Virus record (IMG/VR): IMGVR_UViG_2854078061_000001
Coordinates: 32,001 to 96,000 of that record
Strand: one strand, 5' to 3'
Source of the DNA: a virus
Lineage: Duplodnaviria; Caudoviricetes
Length of the DNA: 64,000 nucleotides
Shown: positions 12,222 through 20,261 of the stretch, piece by piece
How the letters are laid out: the number at the start of each line of letters is the position of its first letter
Position numbering within the stretch: the first letter of the stretch is position 1
Notes under the pieces: model-generated
The model's input: only the letters and a program-made list of their open reading frames with translations
Database searches by the model: none
What the model was told of the DNA's origin: nothing
Position numbers and translations under genes: made by a program

Positions 12222-13613
12222 ATGAAGTTTTATGACACCTCCGCGCTTCTTGATTTGGGAGCCGCCGCTTTCGAACCTGCCAGTGCAACAGCCTCTGGTG
12301 CAACAGAGCCGTTTCTGATTGCCGATATGACGCTGCACGAGCTGGAAGAGATCAAGACAAGCGGCAAGAAGAGCGAAGAGATCCGCTATAAGGCCCGTAC
12401 TGTAACCCGCCTGCTGGCCGAGCATCACGACGACAACACCTTTATGGTAGTGGCAGTCCCCATGTCTTCCCTGTTCTATATCCTGGATGGCAAACCGATC
12501 AGCGATAACAACGACGCGACGATCATGGCAACCGCCCGCTGGTATCTGGACGAGATGAAGCGCAATCTGAATGACGCGATTGAAGCCGGACTCCCGGAAG
12601 CACAGCGACAGATCCAGGCCAACATTGATTCTTTCAGGTTCGTCACCAGCGACCTAAGTTGCGCCAATATCGCCAGCGGCATTCTTGATCTGCCGATCGA
12701 GTTCTCCTATCCCGATGCAGCAGCAAGCGCCAATAATAACTACACTGGCTAGACTGAAGTCACTCTTGATGAAGGCGGCGAGGAAGCCATGGCGATGGCA
12801 TATCAAACCCACGATGAAGGCTATACATATCAGAATCTGTTTGACACTCCAGTGAATGGCTATCTGATTGTTCGTGATCCAGACACAGTAGACGATGATA
12901 TGCCGGCAGGCAATGCGGTAGGCTGGCTACGATGGAATGGCAAGAAATATGTACCACTCAAATACAAAAAGATCAGTAATCGCTTCACTGGCGACGTAAA
13001 ACCACTCAATGACCAACAGAAGCTCGCATTTGATATGCTGCAGAACGACGATATTACAGTTAAAATGCTGGCTGGAACATTCGGCAGCGGCAAGACAATG
13101 CTTATGGTGTCCTCTGCCATTGATATGATCGAGAAGCACAAGGTTGAGAAGCTGATCTGGATTCGCAATAACATCGAAGTCAAGAATACCAAGGAGTTGG
13201 GTGCACTACCTGGCACTCTACTAGAGAAGCTCGGCGCTGCTTCTTTTGCTGGACCTCTGGCTGATCACTTGGGCGGCGAAGCTGGTTTGGAATACTGGAT
13301 CAATAATGGGCAGGTAGAAGTAGCTCACCTTGGATTTATTCGTGGCCGCGACTACAAGAACGCAATTATTATGGTTTCAGAGGCTGAGAATCTGACCAAA
13401 GAGCATGTACAGCTGCTACTCGGCCGTGTTGGTGAAGGATCTATGCTGTGGCTTGATGGCGATCTGAAGCAGACTGACGAGGCCGTGTTTGAAAATAACA
13501 GCGGTATGCGTAAGGCAATTCAGTGTCTGGCTGGCAACCCGCACTTTGGATATGTCTACCTGAACAAGACAGAACGCAGCGAGACCGCACAACTGGCTGA
13601 CCTGTTAGACTAA
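12222..13613 (+). CDS. phoH: PIN-PhoH family ATPase (463 aa; internal TAG 12750 read through)
   Basis: N-terminal PIN (FYDTSAL, ELEEIK, NNDATI, TSD) in frame across TAG with PhoH domain (GTFGSGKT, RGRD, SEAENLT, GDLKQTD). Confidence 0.9.
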
Positions 13614-13627
13614 GGGGGCACAGCAGA

Positions 13628-13909
13628 ATGATAGAAGTAAGAATAGACGGATTACGACCAATGGATTACATCTCTCCTACTGGCGACTGGAACTATGAAG
13701 CGATTGACGGTTTAGCGAAAGAGTTGTGTGACCGACTTCGAGAAGTTGAGACAGAACAGATACTGGAGGAATTCAAAAAATATATAGAAAACCAACATTC
13801 TGACAATATGGTTATATTAAACCAATTGCAAGCTCAATTGAATAATATAGCTACACACCGATATCTGATTACACCATTTAACAGAGGCATAGTAGCATGG
13901 GACAGATGA
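13628..13909 (+). CDS. hypothetical protein
   Basis: ORF with AAGGGG RBS. Confidence 0.6.
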   Translation: MIEVRIDGLRPMDYISPTGDWNYEAIDGLAKELCDRLREVETEQILEEFKKYIENQHSDNMVILNQLQAQLNNIATHRYLITPFNRGIVAWDR

Positions 13910-14226
13910 GCAAAGCTAGTGAAGAAATATTTTATACAACCAATGAGTATCTGACCTATAAGATGTCTCGATATTTTGACACTTATGTTCTGTTGCTTGG
14001 TTTAAAAGACAACTCAGGATTCTTCATGGATTTTGTCGGTGGAGCAGGAGTCCATTATCATCTATATAAGCAGACGGGACCTGCTGTATTTGCATTTATC
14101 GATGATAATTATAAGGTACTTCGTGGAGACGACGCAGAATGGATTACTAATCTTGCTTTGAAAATATGCCAACAATATGACGAACAGCTGTTCAACGAAC
14201 AATGTGTCTGTGAGACTTTGCTATAA
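13897..14226 (+). CDS. CxCExLL-tag protein 1
   Basis: Ends EQCVCETLL*. Confidence 0.75.
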   Translation: MGQMSKASEEIFYTTNEYLTYKMSRYFDTYVLLLGLKDNSGFFMDFVGGAGVHYHLYKQTGPAVFAFIDDNYKVLRGDDAEWITNLALKICQQYDEQLFNEQCVCETLL

Positions 14227-14240
14227 CAGGAGAAGAAATC

Positions 14241-14660
14241 ATGCGCGTTTTATTCGTAAGGTCATCGATCTATGACACAGTATGCGACTGGTATGAACGC
14301 ATGGATACTGTGCAAAAGCATCGCAAGGAGACCGCAATCTGTAAATCACCCGAAGATTTTTGGGATATATTCAATAAAGATAAATTCGGTGCACAATATA
14401 CGACATTCTATTTTGACGATAGGTTGGCGCTGACCGATACTTTTGAATTTTTCAAAGAGATCGCGCGGTTGTATGGTGAAGAGGATGCGAAATATATTTC
14501 AGAAAATAAAATGCGGCGGATCACCATGAACTATTTAATGAACAACAATCAGTTTGACTTGTTCCAGCAGTTCTCCATCACACCCGAATGTCTGGACGAT
14601 GTAATCCATGATGCTCTGGCTGATCAACAGTGTGAATGTGTGTGCAGACCGCTATTGTAA
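14241..14660 (+). CDS. CxCExLL-tag protein 2
   Basis: AGGAG RBS; ends CECVCRPLL*. Confidence 0.8.
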   Translation: MRVLFVRSSIYDTVCDWYERMDTVQKHRKETAICKSPEDFWDIFNKDKFGAQYTTFYFDDRLALTDTFEFFKEIARLYGEEDAKYISENKMRRITMNYLMNNNQFDLFQQFSITPECLDDVIHDALADQQCECVCRPLL

Positions 14661-14674
14661 AGGAGAGGCAAAAT

Positions 14675-15139
14675 ATGGAAAGAATACTAACGCCACGAGG
14701 CGGTGGACGTACATATGCGATATGCGAATACGCTGTCAAGAACAATTGCAATATCTTGGTGCCGATGGGCGGGACGGCTATATTATGTGCACAGGACTAT
14801 ATCAAGGAAATCGCAAGGAATCTTGATATTCAATATTAGGGGTATAGGGTTGATCATCAATGCCTTATAGTAGATTTACAAAGCAGAGCTCGCGGAGAAT
14901 ACAGTATTCACGTGATAACAACTACTTGTCCTCCCGATAATTATCGTGGATTGCACTTAGAGGATAAGCCACTTGTTGTTGATGATATTGACCGATGCTT
15001 TAAGTTCATGTGCTTCCCGAATGTGCGAATTGATGCCTGTTCTCTGATGACATATGATCCGAGCGAGGTTGCGTTTACACCGCCAACTGCACCTCAAGAA
15101 GTGCAGCGGGATGAATGCGTGTGTGACAGCTTGGTATAA
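14675..15139 (+). CDS. CxCExLL-tag protein 3, degenerate P-loop ATPase-like (internal TAG 14837)
   Basis: AAGGAG RBS; PRGGGRT and LVVDD motifs; frame open across TAG; ends DECVCDSLV*. Confidence 0.75.
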
Positions 15140-15153
15140 CAGAGGTGCCAACA

Positions 15154-15462
15154 ATGGATAAATTTGATACGCTACATGATGATCGCACGCTGAGATGGTG
15201 TAAGTACAGATATCCCGATGATATCAACAGTGGCGAGTTTACTTTTGACTGGGCGAAAGATGGATTCACATGGACTCTGCCAAGCGATAAACCACTGCGA
15301 ACCACAAACGAAATCGTATCTTACATTGACGCAAATGGTAATCAGCGTGAAGTTCAAGCGGAAGTAAAATACTATGGAATGGGACACGACACGCTGTGGA
15401 CGATTGCAATTCCTAATGTTGTCGAGGCAGAAAACGAGTGTGTCTGCGAATCACTATTATGA
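15154..15462 (+). CDS. CxCExLL-tag protein 4
   Basis: AGAGGT RBS; ends NECVCESLL*. Confidence 0.8.
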   Translation: MDKFDTLHDDRTLRWCKYRYPDDINSGEFTFDWAKDGFTWTLPSDKPLRTTNEIVSYIDANGNQREVQAEVKYYGMGHDTLWTIAIPNVVEAENECVCESLL

Positions 15463-15470
15463 GGCACGAT

Positions 15471-15752
15471 ATGAACAATCAATTATTGATACCCGATGAT
15501 AAGATATACATATATCCATCAGATTGGAAGCAGCCTGTACGAATTCAATTTGAAAATAGATCGACCATAGACACTGTAAATCATGGCAATTCACATCACA
15601 CTATTCAATTCGACAAATGGGTTGATTATAACACCATAGTTACTGATGAAACTTTACAAAAGCTTATCAAAGACTATATATCGAAAAATTTTCCAAAAGA
15701 AGAATACAGTGTATCTATTCACAATGAGTGTTACTGTGAGAGCCTATTATGA
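15471..15752 (+). CDS. CxCExLL-tag protein 5
   Basis: GAGG RBS; ends NECYCESLL*. Confidence 0.75.
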   Translation: MNNQLLIPDDKIYIYPSDWKQPVRIQFENRSTIDTVNHGNSHHTIQFDKWVDYNTIVTDETLQKLIKDYISKNFPKEEYSVSIHNECYCESLL

Positions 15753-16063
15753 AAAAATATATCAGTGAAGAAGTACAACAACAAGCAGCCCTACAATTAC
15801 ATATCGAAATTGAAAATGATTGTAAAATAAAATTTGATAATTTCAGATTTCAAATAGACGAAGACGATATGACGGTTTGCCGCTATGGAGAACCAGATGA
15901 AACGTTTGTAGTTAAAAGGAAAGTAAGACTTTTCTTATTAAATAACGGATTTGAATTCGAAATTGCTGGGCCTTATGCTGAACAGATGTACAGACGATAT
16001 CTTAAACTGATAAATGGAGATATCAATACAAATAGTGAATATTATTGTGAAAGTCTATTGTAA
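15749..16063 (+). CDS. CxCExLL-tag protein 6
   Basis: ATGA overlap with previous gene; ends SEYYCESLL*. Confidence 0.8.
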   Translation: MKKYISEEVQQQAALQLHIEIENDCKIKFDNFRFQIDEDDMTVCRYGEPDETFVVKRKVRLFLLNNGFEFEIAGPYAEQMYRRYLKLINGDINTNSEYYCESLL

Positions 16064-16068
16064 AGAAG

Positions 16069-16338
16069 GTGAAAATATTGGATGAACAAGAGCTAACTGT
16101 AAGAGTTGAAGAAATAGATAATCATTTATTTTCTATGCACGATACAGTGAACCATGCGATTATTAAAGTCGATGAAGCAAATAATCTGTCGCATTTTGCA
16201 GTAGAACGTATAGATACTATAAGAGCAACAACAATTTCGTATCAAACTGCGATTGATCAATTACAAGCTCGAATCGCAGAACTTGAACATAAAATCGATT
16301 TGCTGACAGGGCCATGTATTTGTGAGCCGCTGCTATAA
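16069..16338 (+). CDS. CxCExLL-tag protein 7 (coiled coil)
   Basis: Start GTG 16069 or TTG 16078; heptad pattern; ends GPCICEPLL*. Confidence 0.75.
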   Translation: MKILDEQELTVRVEEIDNHLFSMHDTVNHAIIKVDEANNLSHFAVERIDTIRATTISYQTAIDQLQARIAELEHKIDLLTGPCICEPLL

Positions 16339-16349
16339 GGAGGAACTAT

Positions 16350-16625
16350 ATGAAAGAAAACGACTTTTCAAAACAGGATATTTATAATATTGGATTTGCC
16401 GTAGCTGATGCTGTGCGCGATTATGATGTAACTTACGAGGGTATCCTTGACGCGATTCAGGTATATGCAGAATAGCAGGAACTGATCGGCAATGCATCGC
16501 TTTATGATACGTTGTGGATGGAAGATGGTACGCCCATGTCCCCTTCTTTGACACGATATTTATTTCACGAGATGTACTGCCCAGATGATTATGGTTATGA
16601 TGAGGAGGACGGCGACGATGAGTGA
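16350..16625 (+). CDS. hypothetical acidic protein (91 aa; internal TAG 16473)
   Basis: AAGGAGG RBS; VYAE*QELIG; frame continues to a TGA overlapping the next start; absent from ORF track. Confidence 0.7.
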
Positions 16626-17186: not shown

Positions 17187-19730
17187 TTGTTTAGTCCACC
17201 ATTATATAGCGTACTAAAATTTAACTTGAATTATATCGTTTCTCATAACTATAATTTTAAACTGACACCAGAAGAGATGGAGCAGTATGAGGTCTTACAG
17301 GGCGACGATATGTTGTTCAGACAAATTCGGCTCATTTCCGACGACTAGAATAAATTCCAGCGCTTTATTATCTTTGTTGATGCAACAGGTGGCCAGAACC
17401 ACCCTGATGCTATTGATCATTTAGTAGAGCATGGATTCAAATTTAATGGCCAGAAATATCTGTTCTGTGAACGTAGTGCAAGTATGGTCCGTCAGAGCAT
17501 GTTAAGTTTTGTTGAGCGACATATCTACCCTGAACTTGACCGCCGCGTAAGCATGGAACTGGATTTTTCTGAGACACCCACCGTCCTGAGCAAGTATTAT
17601 GCTTATCGTGGTTTGATGCTGAGTAGCTGCCACTGCCTAGAGAACTGGTACCCCAAAATGATTGTTGTTCCAGACTATATGACAACGATCAAGAATCAGT
17701 GGATCGAGTATCTGGTAGACAAGACTGTGACGTTTAATGACCGCAAAACAGGCAAAGAGCGTACCTGGACTCAGAAAGATATCGCCACAAAAACAGTTGA
17801 CATTGATATCAACGCCTTTGATGGCGCTGGAATCTGCCACCCAAGTATCATGCGCGAATTTGAAAAGCGTATCGGCACTTCTGAACGGATGAACAGCTTG
17901 ATTTTGCGTGCTCCATATATCAAGGGTTGCTTACACGAGATTGATTACGAGCGTTTTTTTGAAGAGAACGGCGTTACAAAAATCAAGGACATCTGGGGCA
18001 TGGAATATGATGTAACACCTGGCAGCGAACCAATGATTATTATTACTGCTTCAATGTACAAGGGTCTCAAATATTTCAAGAAAACTGGTACCTATTCTGA
18101 CTGGGAGAGATATTGGGAACTTTTCAAGAAGTACGACAACTGCCTTGGTGTAGCTAAATGGAACTTTACGCTTGAACAAGAACCGCTTTCCACCCGTAGC
18201 AACTATCAGGTCATTCAAGATCTACAGCTCGACAATGAGTCTTTTAAGCATCTAGCTGACGACAGCATTACCTGGTATCAGAATATTGTCAAAGGCGACC
18301 CAATTTATACATACTGCTTCCTTGGTTTACTTGCCGAGAACAACGACCCGATGAATCATTACATGGCTGCTGCCCTGCGTAACCCAGTGATGGTGAAAGA
18401 GCCTGCAATCAAAGATTATATTCACTCGCTGCTTGATAAATATCGCAATGAGATGAAGTGCGGTCGGCTTTGGATGAATGCTACTTTTAAGTTCTGGGCT
18501 CCTGACCTTATTGCACTATTGCAGCACATTGGTGGCCTACCTGTGACTGGCTGCCTTGAAGACGGTGAGTTCTACAGCTTTGATCGTCGTGGTGTGATGG
18601 AGGGAGACCGCTTAATTGAGCGCAATCCCCATATCTCTGTTGCAGAACATGTAAAGGCCAAGGCCGTAGACAACGAATACACCCGCAAATACTGCAGCCA
18701 TCTTCAGAATGTTGCTATGGTAAATATCAAATCCATCGTGGCTTCCAGACTCAATGGTTCGGATTTTGATGGCGACCTGGTTCTAATCATCGATAATCCG
18801 CTGATGATGAGTGGTGTTCCTGATAATATCCCCATTACACTCGATGTTGAAGATAAGATCACTGCGTTGGCAGAATGTGATATTGTGAAGAACAAAGTTG
18901 CCTGCACCATTCGCGGATTGAAGAGTTCTATTGGCGAAATTTCAAACTACGCAACTGCATACCATAATAAGGTTCCGACCATGGAAAAGACCAAGAAGCT
19001 CTATCACGATAATATTTCGCTTTTGAGCATCTGCAACGGAAAAGCTATCGATTATGCTAAAACAGGTGTTCTATATCCGATCCCGCGTAATGTAGCAGCT
19101 TATGGTCGTCCTCTACCCTACTTTATGAAGTATGCAGGCCCTTACTACGCACGTTTACATAATCTCAGCAAGGCACATAGCAACATGAACCTGCTTTGCA
19201 TGAGTCTGGAGCGTTGGGAGCGCGGTGTACGGTGGCGTAAAGAGCCCGCAGGCAGCTTTGATTGGCATATCATGTACGATCCAGAGGTCTCCTATGACCA
19301 GGCAGTCTTTGATGAGATCGAAGCCATTTTCTTGGACTTCAACAAATGCCGCAAGGAACAGCTTGAGTTCGAAAAGAAATGTCGCAACTGGCAATTATAT
19401 CATAAGGACATCGAGTCGCGTATTACCAAAGAAGAGGCTAAGACATATGAGACGAACTGGCAGGCGATCTACAATGTCTACCGTAACAAGTGTAAGCTGG
19501 TGTGTCCTGATGTGAGAGAGCTGGCGAATATTCTTGTAGTGCTTTGCTATGAGAAGTATCCCAATAAATTCAAGAAGTTTTTGTGGCACATGGCCGGCGC
19601 TGGTGTGGTCGAAAATATCAAGCCGGTTCCTGTTCAGCTGCCAGTTCACGATCCGAACGGCGAGTACGAATACCTTGGCCAGCGATATAGTCTGGCTGAA
19701 CCGAAAATTTATGAAGCGAGGGTGAAATAA
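17187..19730 (+). CDS. YonO-like single-subunit (double-psi beta-barrel, RdRP-like) RNA polymerase (847 aa; internal TAG 17346)
   Basis: TTG start with GAGGAG RBS; catalytic NGSDFDGD, ERNPH, DGAG, AIDYAKTG motifs; position upstream of head genes as in SPbeta. Confidence 0.88.
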
Positions 19731-19731
19731 T

Positions 19732-19980
19732 ATGGGTTGGTTTAAGAAGAAAACAAAGAAACCGCAGAAAATAACCAAGTGTCCTACCTGTGGCGGCTTG
19801 TTGACAAAGCAGACTGGACTGGAGCACGAATTTACTTATAAAAATCAGATGGTTCATGTGCCGGATATCACGGCGATGGTATGCGGTGATTGTGGCGAGA
19901 TGTATTTTGATTATACCGAATTCGAGCGTATTTCAAATTATGTTCATGAAGCAGTTGATGGGAAGGATGAAACAGAATGA
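19732..19980 (+). CDS. YgiT/MqsA-type zinc-finger protein
   Basis: CPTCGG...VPDITAMVCGDCGEMYF pattern. Confidence 0.75.
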   Translation: MGWFKKKTKKPQKITKCPTCGGLLTKQTGLEHEFTYKNQMVHVPDITAMVCGDCGEMYFDYTEFERISNYVHEAVDGKDETE

Positions 19981-20261
19981 GTTATCGGTGTTTTAAAATA
20001 ACAATCATTACTTTGATAGCTGTAATATGTTTATGTTTAGGTATTGGAATTTGGGCATCTATTCCGCGCAAAAACAATGTAGGCGATAAATCTATTTATA
20101 ATGGAAGCTCTTTGTACAGTATTTCCAACACGAAACTTATTTACGATGAGAACACAAGAATTATGTATTATTGGCTACATAGTGGATATATGTCTCCATA
20201 CTATAATGCACATGGACAACTTTGCCGCTATATTGATGGCGAAATTATACCAATCGAGTAA
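19977..20261 (+). CDS. membrane-anchored protein (DUF6440-like)
   Basis: N-terminal TM; IYDENTRIMYY...MSPYYNAHG pattern. Confidence 0.65.
   Translation: MSYRCFKITIITLIAVICLCLGIGIWASIPRKNNVGDKSIYNGSSLYSISNTKLIYDENTRIMYYWLHSGYMSPYYNAHGQLCRYIDGEIIPIE

Follow-up and report, generated by a model that had tools for sequence, protein, structure and literature searches.

A conserved C-terminal peptide on unrelated small proteins of a gut phage, probably a docking tag for one shared partner

Proteins that share a terminal tag are known from several systems, among them the capsid targeting sequence of phage T4, the cargo-loading peptides of encapsulins, degrons, and clamp-binding tails. The T4 sequence places one short peptide on unrelated small proteins that have a common destination, and in the ssrA tag the last residues are read by ClpX and the upstream part by the adaptor SspB. 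The stretch analyzed here, a window of 64,000 nucleotides that covers bases 32001-96000 of a 108-kb IMG/VR record (G000, estimated to be 73% complete), holds an array of seven adjacent small genes, g1 to g7, whose products likewise end in one short peptide. The eight C-terminal residues are a portable handle on otherwise unrelated proteins, and they probably act as a docking tag that is read by one partner. As far as found, what is new is a gene-encoded tag that stands on ~10% of the genes of a phage and on at least nine body families, changes its dialect genome-wide, and occurs on other mobile elements as well.

The array occupies positions 13897-16338, and each of its genes ends in C-x-C-[EDR]-x-L-[LV] directly before the stop codon, with tyrosine in place of the first cysteine in g6:

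g1, 13897-14226, plus strand: 109 residues, orphan body; tail at 14200-14223 (..NEQCVCETLL), stop codon TAA
g2, 14241-14660, plus strand: 139 residues, alpha/beta receiver-like body; tail at 14634-14657 (ECVCRPLL; CECVCRPLL with the preceding residue)
g3, 14675-15139, plus strand: 154 codons with one in-frame TAG at 14837-14839; tail at 15113-15136 (ECVCDSLV; DECVCDSLV with the preceding residue)
g4, 15154-15462 (likely start), plus strand: 102 residues; tail at 15436-15459 (ECVCESLL; NECVCESLL with the preceding residue), stop codon TGA
g5, 15471-15752 (likely start), plus strand: 93 residues; tail at 15726-15749 (ECYCESLL; NECYCESLL with the preceding residue)
g6, 15749-16063, plus strand: 104 residues; tail at 16037-16060 (EYYCESLL; SEYYCESLL with the preceding residue), tyrosine replacing the first cysteine
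g7, 16069-16338, plus strand: 89 residues, probable coiled coil; tail at 16312-16335 (PCICEPLL; GPCICEPLL with the preceding residue)

All seven open reading frames (ORFs) are present on the plus strand with exactly the endings listed for them by an initial annotation that had been made from the sequence alone. The stop of g5 overlaps the start of g6 (ATGA). A six-frame scan of the window for [CY].C[EDR].L[LVI]-stop, over 5595 stop-to-stop segments, gives seven matches, each of them an array gene; the chance expectation is roughly estimated at ~0.1.

The bodies in front of the tail are unrelated, as the initial annotation held. BLASTP detects no similarity among the seven, profile-profile comparison with hhalign gives less than 7% probability throughout, and none of the seven proteins matches a Pfam or PHROG family. 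The one weak profile link, from g4 (56%), leads only to another tagged family that is found in relatives. Taken over all tagged proteins, the bodies fall into at least nine families, including SH3-like, receiver-like and coiled-coil ones. The AlphaFold2 model of g2 has a predicted local distance difference test score (pLDDT) of 86 and an alpha/beta receiver-like fold, for which fold searches return weak CheY/REC-like matches; an Atlas lead to cREC_REC at 0.86 agrees. A tagged family encoded in the leftward arm of the genome is modelled with confidence as an SH3-like barrel, a different fold. The top fold matches of this barrel are YorP and MIB1 REP, with weak E-values, a W-T-D-x-M-F segment of the family aligns to MIB1, and multi-repeat relatives of the domain, which are never tagged, match PF18346 (Mind-bomb repeat/SH3_15-like). 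The left-arm family thus resembles the Mind-bomb-type SH3-like repeat in sequence or fold. In both models the tail has low pLDDT (~60 in one and below 50 in the other, the latter for residues 132-139 of g2) and lacks secondary structure.

The tail itself is bound to the end of the protein and is retained as the bodies diverge. The motif is terminal in 63 of its 64 occurrences in five genomes, and it stands at the extreme C-terminus of every tagged gene of the record (19/19). Orthologues of g2, g3, g5, g6 and g7 keep the tag at 35-89% body identity: it is present in g2 homologues at 54-87%, in g5 homologues at 55-61% and in g7 homologues at 40-49%, while g6 homologues at 38-41% end in ..VCICESLL and g3 orthologues at 36-89% carry the tag in the dialect of their resident genome. 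The sole homologue found for g1 (L020, 6256-6576, 66% identity) ends before the tag and is untagged. Two observations had been named in advance as fatal to the proposal, that the seven are ordinary paralogues and that the motif is missing from homologues; no kinship is detectable by BLASTP or hhalign, and the homologues keep the motif, the one of g1 excepted. The tail is thus a portable handle.

Conservation acts on the peptide and not on the DNA beneath it. Synonymous variation, which had been noticed in the seven genes and taken to speak against a DNA recombination site, is borne out and extends to all 19 tags of the record. At each cysteine position TGT occurs 10 to 11 times and TGC eight times, serine is encoded by TCT, TCA, TCG, AGT and AGC and so by both the TCN and the AGY sets, and leucine uses five codons; the third positions approach maximal entropy and the first two are fixed. 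Because third positions are nearly random and the serine and leucine codons switch, there is no 24-nucleotide consensus. The 19 tagged genes stop at TAA or TGA and never at TAG, and the genes of the array differ in their spacing to the next start and in the ribosome-binding site. This pattern shows purifying selection on the peptide.

Which residues are held constant was read from a logo of 68 representative clusters (at most 50% identity) of the single-domain SH3-like family. Position −9 is N or D, and position −8 is E in 43/68 clusters. Cysteine fills position −7 in 45/68, with phenylalanine, leucine, valine or tyrosine in the others, and position −5 in 60/68, with phenylalanine in 7/68. Serine stands at −3 in 59/68 clusters and leucine at −2 and at −1 in 67/68 each; the window tails have S, T or P at −3 and L or V at −1. 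In a family of ribbon-helix-helix (RHH) proteins described below the cysteine at −5 is also replaced by alanine or threonine, and in the lineage of the window phage it is invariant. Since phenylalanine, leucine, valine, tyrosine, alanine and threonine substitute for them while S-L-L stays, the cysteines behave as replaceable hydrophobic contacts, and the nearly invariant part is S-L-L with its free carboxylate.

The tag extends well beyond the array. The record contains 19 tagged ORFs, the seven of the window and 12 on the minus strand at G000:C1:11936-25098, outside the window; 11 of these 12 are paralogues of the SH3-like family, of ~90 residues and 29-44% identical to each other. Complete relatives of 140-150 kb have 13-19 tagged genes each, and roughly one gene in ten of this gut phage (~140 kb) bears the tag. 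The array is therefore one of two clusters of a genome-wide set and no self-contained local system; the common terminal handle of the earlier proposal stands. A strict DNA pattern of the tag finds 89 stretches in ~49 large IMG/VR contigs, almost none of which would be expected by chance by the analysts' own estimate, and the 374 tagged ORFs in those loci form 12 BLAST clusters, ~9 of them independent by hhalign. Upstream of the RNA polymerase (RNAP) gene that follows the array, four to eight tagged ORFs lie within 6 kb in all 71 untruncated loci of RNAP relatives (66-100% RNAP identity). Public sequencing runs that hold the stretch come from mouse, pig and bovine gut metagenomes. For P0144 no relative was found in IMG/VR.

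A comparison of 72 RNAP-linked loci reveals two dialects of the tail. Type A reads E-C-x-C-[ED]-S-L-L, and type B reads [PSNQA]-[FL]-x-C-[KRH]-S-L-L, often with K or R before it. Each genome uses one dialect, the same in both of its arms, and type B genomes are basic in both. Orthologous g2, g3 and SH3-like bodies carry the dialect of the genome in which they reside: g2 ends in ..ECVCRPLL in A genomes and in ..FVCKSLL or ..LSCKSLL in B genomes, and g3 in ..ECVCDSLV versus ..QLTCRSLL. At position −4, two A genomes together have 16 acidic and 2 basic residues, whereas two B genomes have none that are acidic and 24 that are basic (Fisher p = 9e-10). The complete B genome G451 has an RNAP 100% identical to that of the window, while its other genes are mostly 40-85% identical, which indicates that these genomes are mosaics whose RNAP region has been exchanged between sub-lineages. 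A concerted reversal of charge over unrelated proteins fits co-evolution with one shared reader, and the idea of a common reader, already present in the initial annotation, gains strong support from this genome-wide switch.

These observations suggest a model in which the last eight residues serve as an address tag, a short linear motif that is portable between many unrelated small proteins and is probably read by one common partner. The free S-L-L-COOH end would dock in a conserved pocket, while positions −4, −5, −7, −8 and −9 would make lineage-specific contacts, acidic here and basic in sister phages. The variable bodies would supply function and target specificity, and the tail would give all of them one shared fate or location.

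The reader of such a tag is more likely encoded by the host than by the phage. No phage gene that was tried is always present, and the tag also ends RHH proteins of integrative elements in bacteria. A NikA-like/CopG RHH protein on a contig of a Faecalibacterium metagenome-assembled genome (MAG) ends in ..NECVCESLL, and it belongs to the following element, which adjoins genes read by eye as housekeeping:

L109, 8379-11765 (Faecalibacterium MAG contig): small integrative element with a tyrosine integrase, a SprT-like protein, a likely resolvase and the tagged NikA-like RHH protein

Among the clusters of RHH homologues, 45/57 end in SLL, in both dialects and on bacterial contigs of up to 260 kb. 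A profile of the tagged SH3-like family has no match in 400 genomes of the class to which this MAG belongs. The phage G049 (141 kb, scored 100% complete) uses the A dialect and has four tagged genes; it shares homologues of tail genes with G000, and tblastn at E 1e-5 finds in it no homologue of the G000 terminase, portal or capsid.

Several phage genes were tried as the reader and rejected. A ThiF-like E1 is present in 42/49 tag-bearing contigs and absent, in protein and Pfam searches, from the tagged phages G049, G030 and G047. An AAA ATPase (phrog_2376) is absent from G049 and G030, and its alleles are not sorted by dialect, that of B2 being 94% identical to the A version. A 691-residue protein (phrog_1735) is missing from the complete phage G027, and the trio that it forms with phrog_2018 and the ATPase is present in Bacillus phage BCP78 without nearby tags. 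No match to PDZ_2 (PF13180) was found in G000, G027 or G049, and no DnaN-type domain was found in three of the phages. Two further comparisons did not single out a gene: when genes were sorted by dialect across a 2x2 set of complete genomes, 100 of 140 followed it, too many to be informative, and the shift in net charge between A and B orthologues gave no clear reader candidate.

Two of these candidates lie in gene groups with features of their own. The operon G000:C1:20462-24596 (minus strand), found in both A and B lineages, consists of orphans of 143, 76, 376 and 321 residues followed by the ThiF-family E1-like gene; a reverse transcriptase gene (18924-20156) follows it and tagged genes flank it. 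This operon may be a separate conjugation-like or counter-defence system. The trio of 691-residue phrog_1735, 127-residue phrog_2018 and AAA ATPase phrog_2376 genes occupies G000:C1:10411-15488 (minus strand), and in G000 tagged SH3-like genes are inserted inside it. The 691-residue protein alone has relatives in ~550 phage records, including phages of Salmonella, Klebsiella and Escherichia. G049 carries a copy of its gene at G049:C1:94883-98538, 93% identical and apparently split, together with the four tagged genes, which suggests transfer of a cassette into an otherwise distant phage.

The leading specific guess, a tentative one, is that the reader is a host AAA+ protease or unfoldase system. 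By analogy with ssrA, the conserved end might be read as ClpX reads its degron and the upstream part as SspB does; the tagged proteins might then be deliberately short-lived, or might be tethers that bring their bound partners to the machine. RHH regulators and early phage proteins are typical substrates of proteases. An unstructured extreme C-terminus with a non-polar end, as expected of an ssrA-like ClpXP degron, is found both in the structure models and in the position of the motif, and the ..LAA ending of ssrA is absent. More doubtful is the further thought that the tagged proteins are a phage counterpart of F-box or proteolysis-targeting chimera (PROTAC)-like adaptors. Fast-evolving small domains, dozens of them counting the eleven SH3-like paralogues and the unrelated folds, could each grip a different host or defence protein, and the S-L-L tail could plug into one host machine, such as an AAA+ protease, that destroys or relocates the target. 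The dialects would then track alleles of the machine, and the plug would also serve integrative elements of the same hosts.

Several points weigh against a single host reader of this kind. Its existence is deduced from the concerted change of dialect, yet the A and B phages also form separate sub-lineages in which most genes differ (of 140 shared genes, 100 sort in the same way), so that the dialects could reflect common descent and drift. Hybrid tails such as ECxCKSLL exist, and the dialects are therefore not sharply separate. The tagged genes of G049 stand in a cassette that looks horizontally and recently acquired, which makes the absence of ThiF and the AAA ATPase from that phage weaker evidence; the integrative elements, in turn, could themselves be satellites of such phages. 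Finally, the transfer-messenger RNA (tmRNA) tag of the linked Faecalibacterium MAG is DNNNYQLLAA and not S-L-L, which leaves mimicry of ssrA unsupported. Pure drift is made less likely by a charge reversal that runs across unrelated proteins and through both arms.

Of the other roles that the tail might play, the one that survives best, although it is improbable, is a signal for packaging into the virion, a candidate of the initial annotation. The tail would then do at the C-terminus what the capsid targeting sequence does in T4, or act as the cargo-loading peptides of encapsulins do; it would bind the procapsid interior, the scaffold or the portal, and the proteins would be injected with the DNA. 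In favour of this reading, the proteins are small, with many of their genes surrounded by what look like counter-defence genes; the window array, like the RNAP and head genes beside it, belongs to the rightward arm, whose in-frame TAG feature is also seen in g3. The cargo peptides of encapsulins, C-terminal and rich in S-L, bind an HK97-type shell, and a phage-encoded reader would also explain lineage-specific dialects. The candidate is weakened by the tag-bearing phage without a detected homologue of the head genes and by the same tag on NikA-like RHH proteins of integrative elements. In addition, most tagged genes (12 of 19) are encoded in the leftward arm, a long way from the head genes, and no structural protein or scaffold candidate has a related tail. 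The T4 sequence is N-terminal, comprises ~10 residues and is cleaved by the prohead protease at L/I-x-E, whereas the tag here is C-terminal; encapsulin cargo genes adjoin the gene of the HK97-fold shell, and the tagged genes stand away from the capsid gene.

It is very improbable that the tail is a sliding-clamp-binding peptide that tethers proteins of mobile elements to the host beta clamp, a second candidate of the initial annotation. S-L-L resembles the end of the bacterial Q-L-[SD]-L-F motif and of E. coli MutS QMSLL, transposases and phage proteins are known users of the clamp, and a tagged relaxosome accessory protein would suit a hub linked to DNA. The host clamp would have to be the target since no DnaN-type domain was found in the phage. 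The fit to the consensus is poor, however: where its first two positions demand glutamine and leucine, the tails have cysteine or phenylalanine and the charged residues E, D, K or R. A dialect switch that reverses charge is also unexpected, because the clamp pocket is highly conserved, and nineteen different binders in one phage would be without precedent.

The cysteines invite a third possibility, covalent or metal chemistry through their side chains or through the terminal carboxylate, which is highly improbable as a general role. Three versions can be considered: adenylation by the ThiF-like E1 followed by conjugation, a five-residue thiolactone like that of an autoinducing peptide (AIP), and an intermolecular zinc clasp formed by CxC. 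The E1-like gene (G000:C1:20462-21142; PF00899, 6e-19) lies between two left-arm clusters of tagged genes and accompanies the tag in most contigs, cysteine plus four residues is the ring size of an AIP, the cysteine at −5 is invariant in this lineage, and E-C-x-C-E offers metal ligands. In relatives, though, Phe, Ala and Thr take the place of this cysteine and Phe, Leu, Val and Tyr that of the one at −7 while S-L-L is kept, and the B dialect has a single cysteine with basic neighbours; this makes the metal, docking or conjugation role that the initial annotation had offered as a candidate for the cysteines unlikely in general. The tag is found in phages without a ThiF homologue and so lacks the obligate co-occurrence with the enzyme that is expected of substrates of ThiF, MoeB, MccB or Cap2. 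Known E1 substrates end in small residues, such as Gly-Gly, and not in Leu-Leu. ThiF alleles differ as much between two A sublineages (75-77% identity) as between A and B (70%). The cysteine that is essential at −5 in an AgrD-derived AIP is likewise replaced in relatives that keep S-L-L, and the cysteines at −5 and −7 do not make a CaaX prenylation box, which has its cysteine at −4.

It is barely credible that the seven descend from one ancestor as far-diverged paralogues, of which the tail would be the last conserved remnant. Small phage proteins do diverge fast and 11 of the 12 left-arm tagged proteins are true paralogues, but the seven show neither pairwise nor profile similarity, the folds differ (an SH3-like beta-barrel, an alpha/beta receiver-like fold and a probable coiled coil, the first two of them modelled), the tail is also found on an RHH DNA-binding protein, and a g1 homologue exists without it. 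The chance is negligible that the conserved 24 nucleotides are a DNA- or RNA-level element (a recombination linker, a promoter or a translational coupling signal) with the peptide incidental to it: the tag does directly precede the next gene's ribosome-binding site, with TGA stops often overlapping GAGGTG, and the gene content of the array is shuffled between relatives, but third positions, serine and leucine codons and downstream spacing all vary as described, and on bacterial elements the tag ends genes with unrelated downstream sequence.

The array has the following neighbours:

12222-13613, plus strand: PIN-PhoH fusion on the left flank (PF02562, PF13638), read through a TAG at 12750-12752, untagged
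13628-13909, plus strand: untagged 93-residue gene directly before the array
17277-19730, plus strand: YonO/RdRP-like single-subunit RNAP on the right flank (PF05183, 9e-17)

A terminase gene lies further downstream of the RNAP, and the placement of the array near the RNAP and head genes in the initial annotation thus holds. So does its description of the block as more AT-rich than phoH, with a GC content of 0.385-0.41 for the array versus 0.45-0.47 for the PhoH region. At the g1 position some relatives have an inserted gene, antirepressor-like by eye, whose product has 261-286 residues (L002, 4639-5499; L020, 6573-7391); it directly follows the tagless g1 homologue in L020 and replaces g1 in L002. 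The insertion shows the array to be a hotspot of gene gain and loss.

Many genes of the rightward arm contain an in-frame TAG, usually one per gene, and few do in the leftward arm. The orthologues at the TAG site of g3 divide into 26 loci with TAG and 12 with TAT (Tyr), frame and tag being kept, so g3 is not a dead gene. The TAG of the PhoH gene corresponds to Trp in the L002 homologue, and a further TAG at 16473-16475 has Trp in its homologues. None of the six transfer RNA genes of the 108-kb record encodes a suppressor.

Two other features of the minus strand were recorded. The genes at G000:C1:3038-10399 (minus strand), which encode an RlaP-like nucleotidyltransferase, an HD-domain protein, NAD synthase, a Macro domain protein, and NAMPT/NAPRTase-like and phosphoribosyltransferase-like proteins, look like a counter-defence module for salvage of nicotinamide adenine dinucleotide (NAD). 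A 223-residue protein encoded at G000:C1:27058-27729 (minus strand) has a CX3CX2C motif near its N-terminus by eye and is radical-SAM-like; it matches phrog_17662 and, weakly, an NrdG-type activase.

No Pfam, NCBIfam or PHROG family of known function covers the tail or the window bodies, in accord with the earlier statement that no described family matches, and literature searches found no description of the tag. If one peptide sets the fate of about a tenth of the proteins of a phage, this would be a new organizing principle for accessory genes. The tail could be used as bait for its reader, it marks orphan genes as members of one functional programme, and it might be put to use as a portable tag in the hard-to-study Firmicutes of the gut. 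The dialect switch is a natural experiment for mapping the interface between peptide and reader, and from the presence of the tag on integrative elements it seems that one host hub serves different mobile elements.

Known systems in which a terminal element directs many proteins share some features with the tag and lack others. The ssrA tag and other AAA+ degrons are, like it, short, unstructured and C-terminal, end in a non-polar free carboxylate, act on any body and have a two-part logic; they differ in that ssrA is added by tmRNA during translation, whereas the tag here is gene-encoded and has another sequence, and no phage is known to carry one degron on ~10% of its proteins. The pattern of a class I PDZ ligand (X-[ST]-X-hydrophobic-COOH) is present, with S at −3, a C-terminal L and a strictly terminal position, and the alternation of conserved positions (−7, −5, −3 and −1) is what might be expected if they formed one face of an added beta strand. 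Most PDZ proteins known from bacteria are extracytoplasmic, and the tagged proteins have no signal peptide by eye. The C-termini of T4 gp43, gp33 and gp55 also belong to unrelated proteins that dock on one hub through a hydrophobic tail, and the S-L-[LF] end of clamp-binding tails is similar. In poxviruses the F-box-like PRANC module of ankyrin proteins recruits a eukaryotic ubiquitin machine through a folded domain of ~40 residues and has no relation to the tag in sequence or structure, so that the likeness is one of function only. What is shared is the design: many paralogues per genome, each with a variable binder joined to a short constant C-terminal module.

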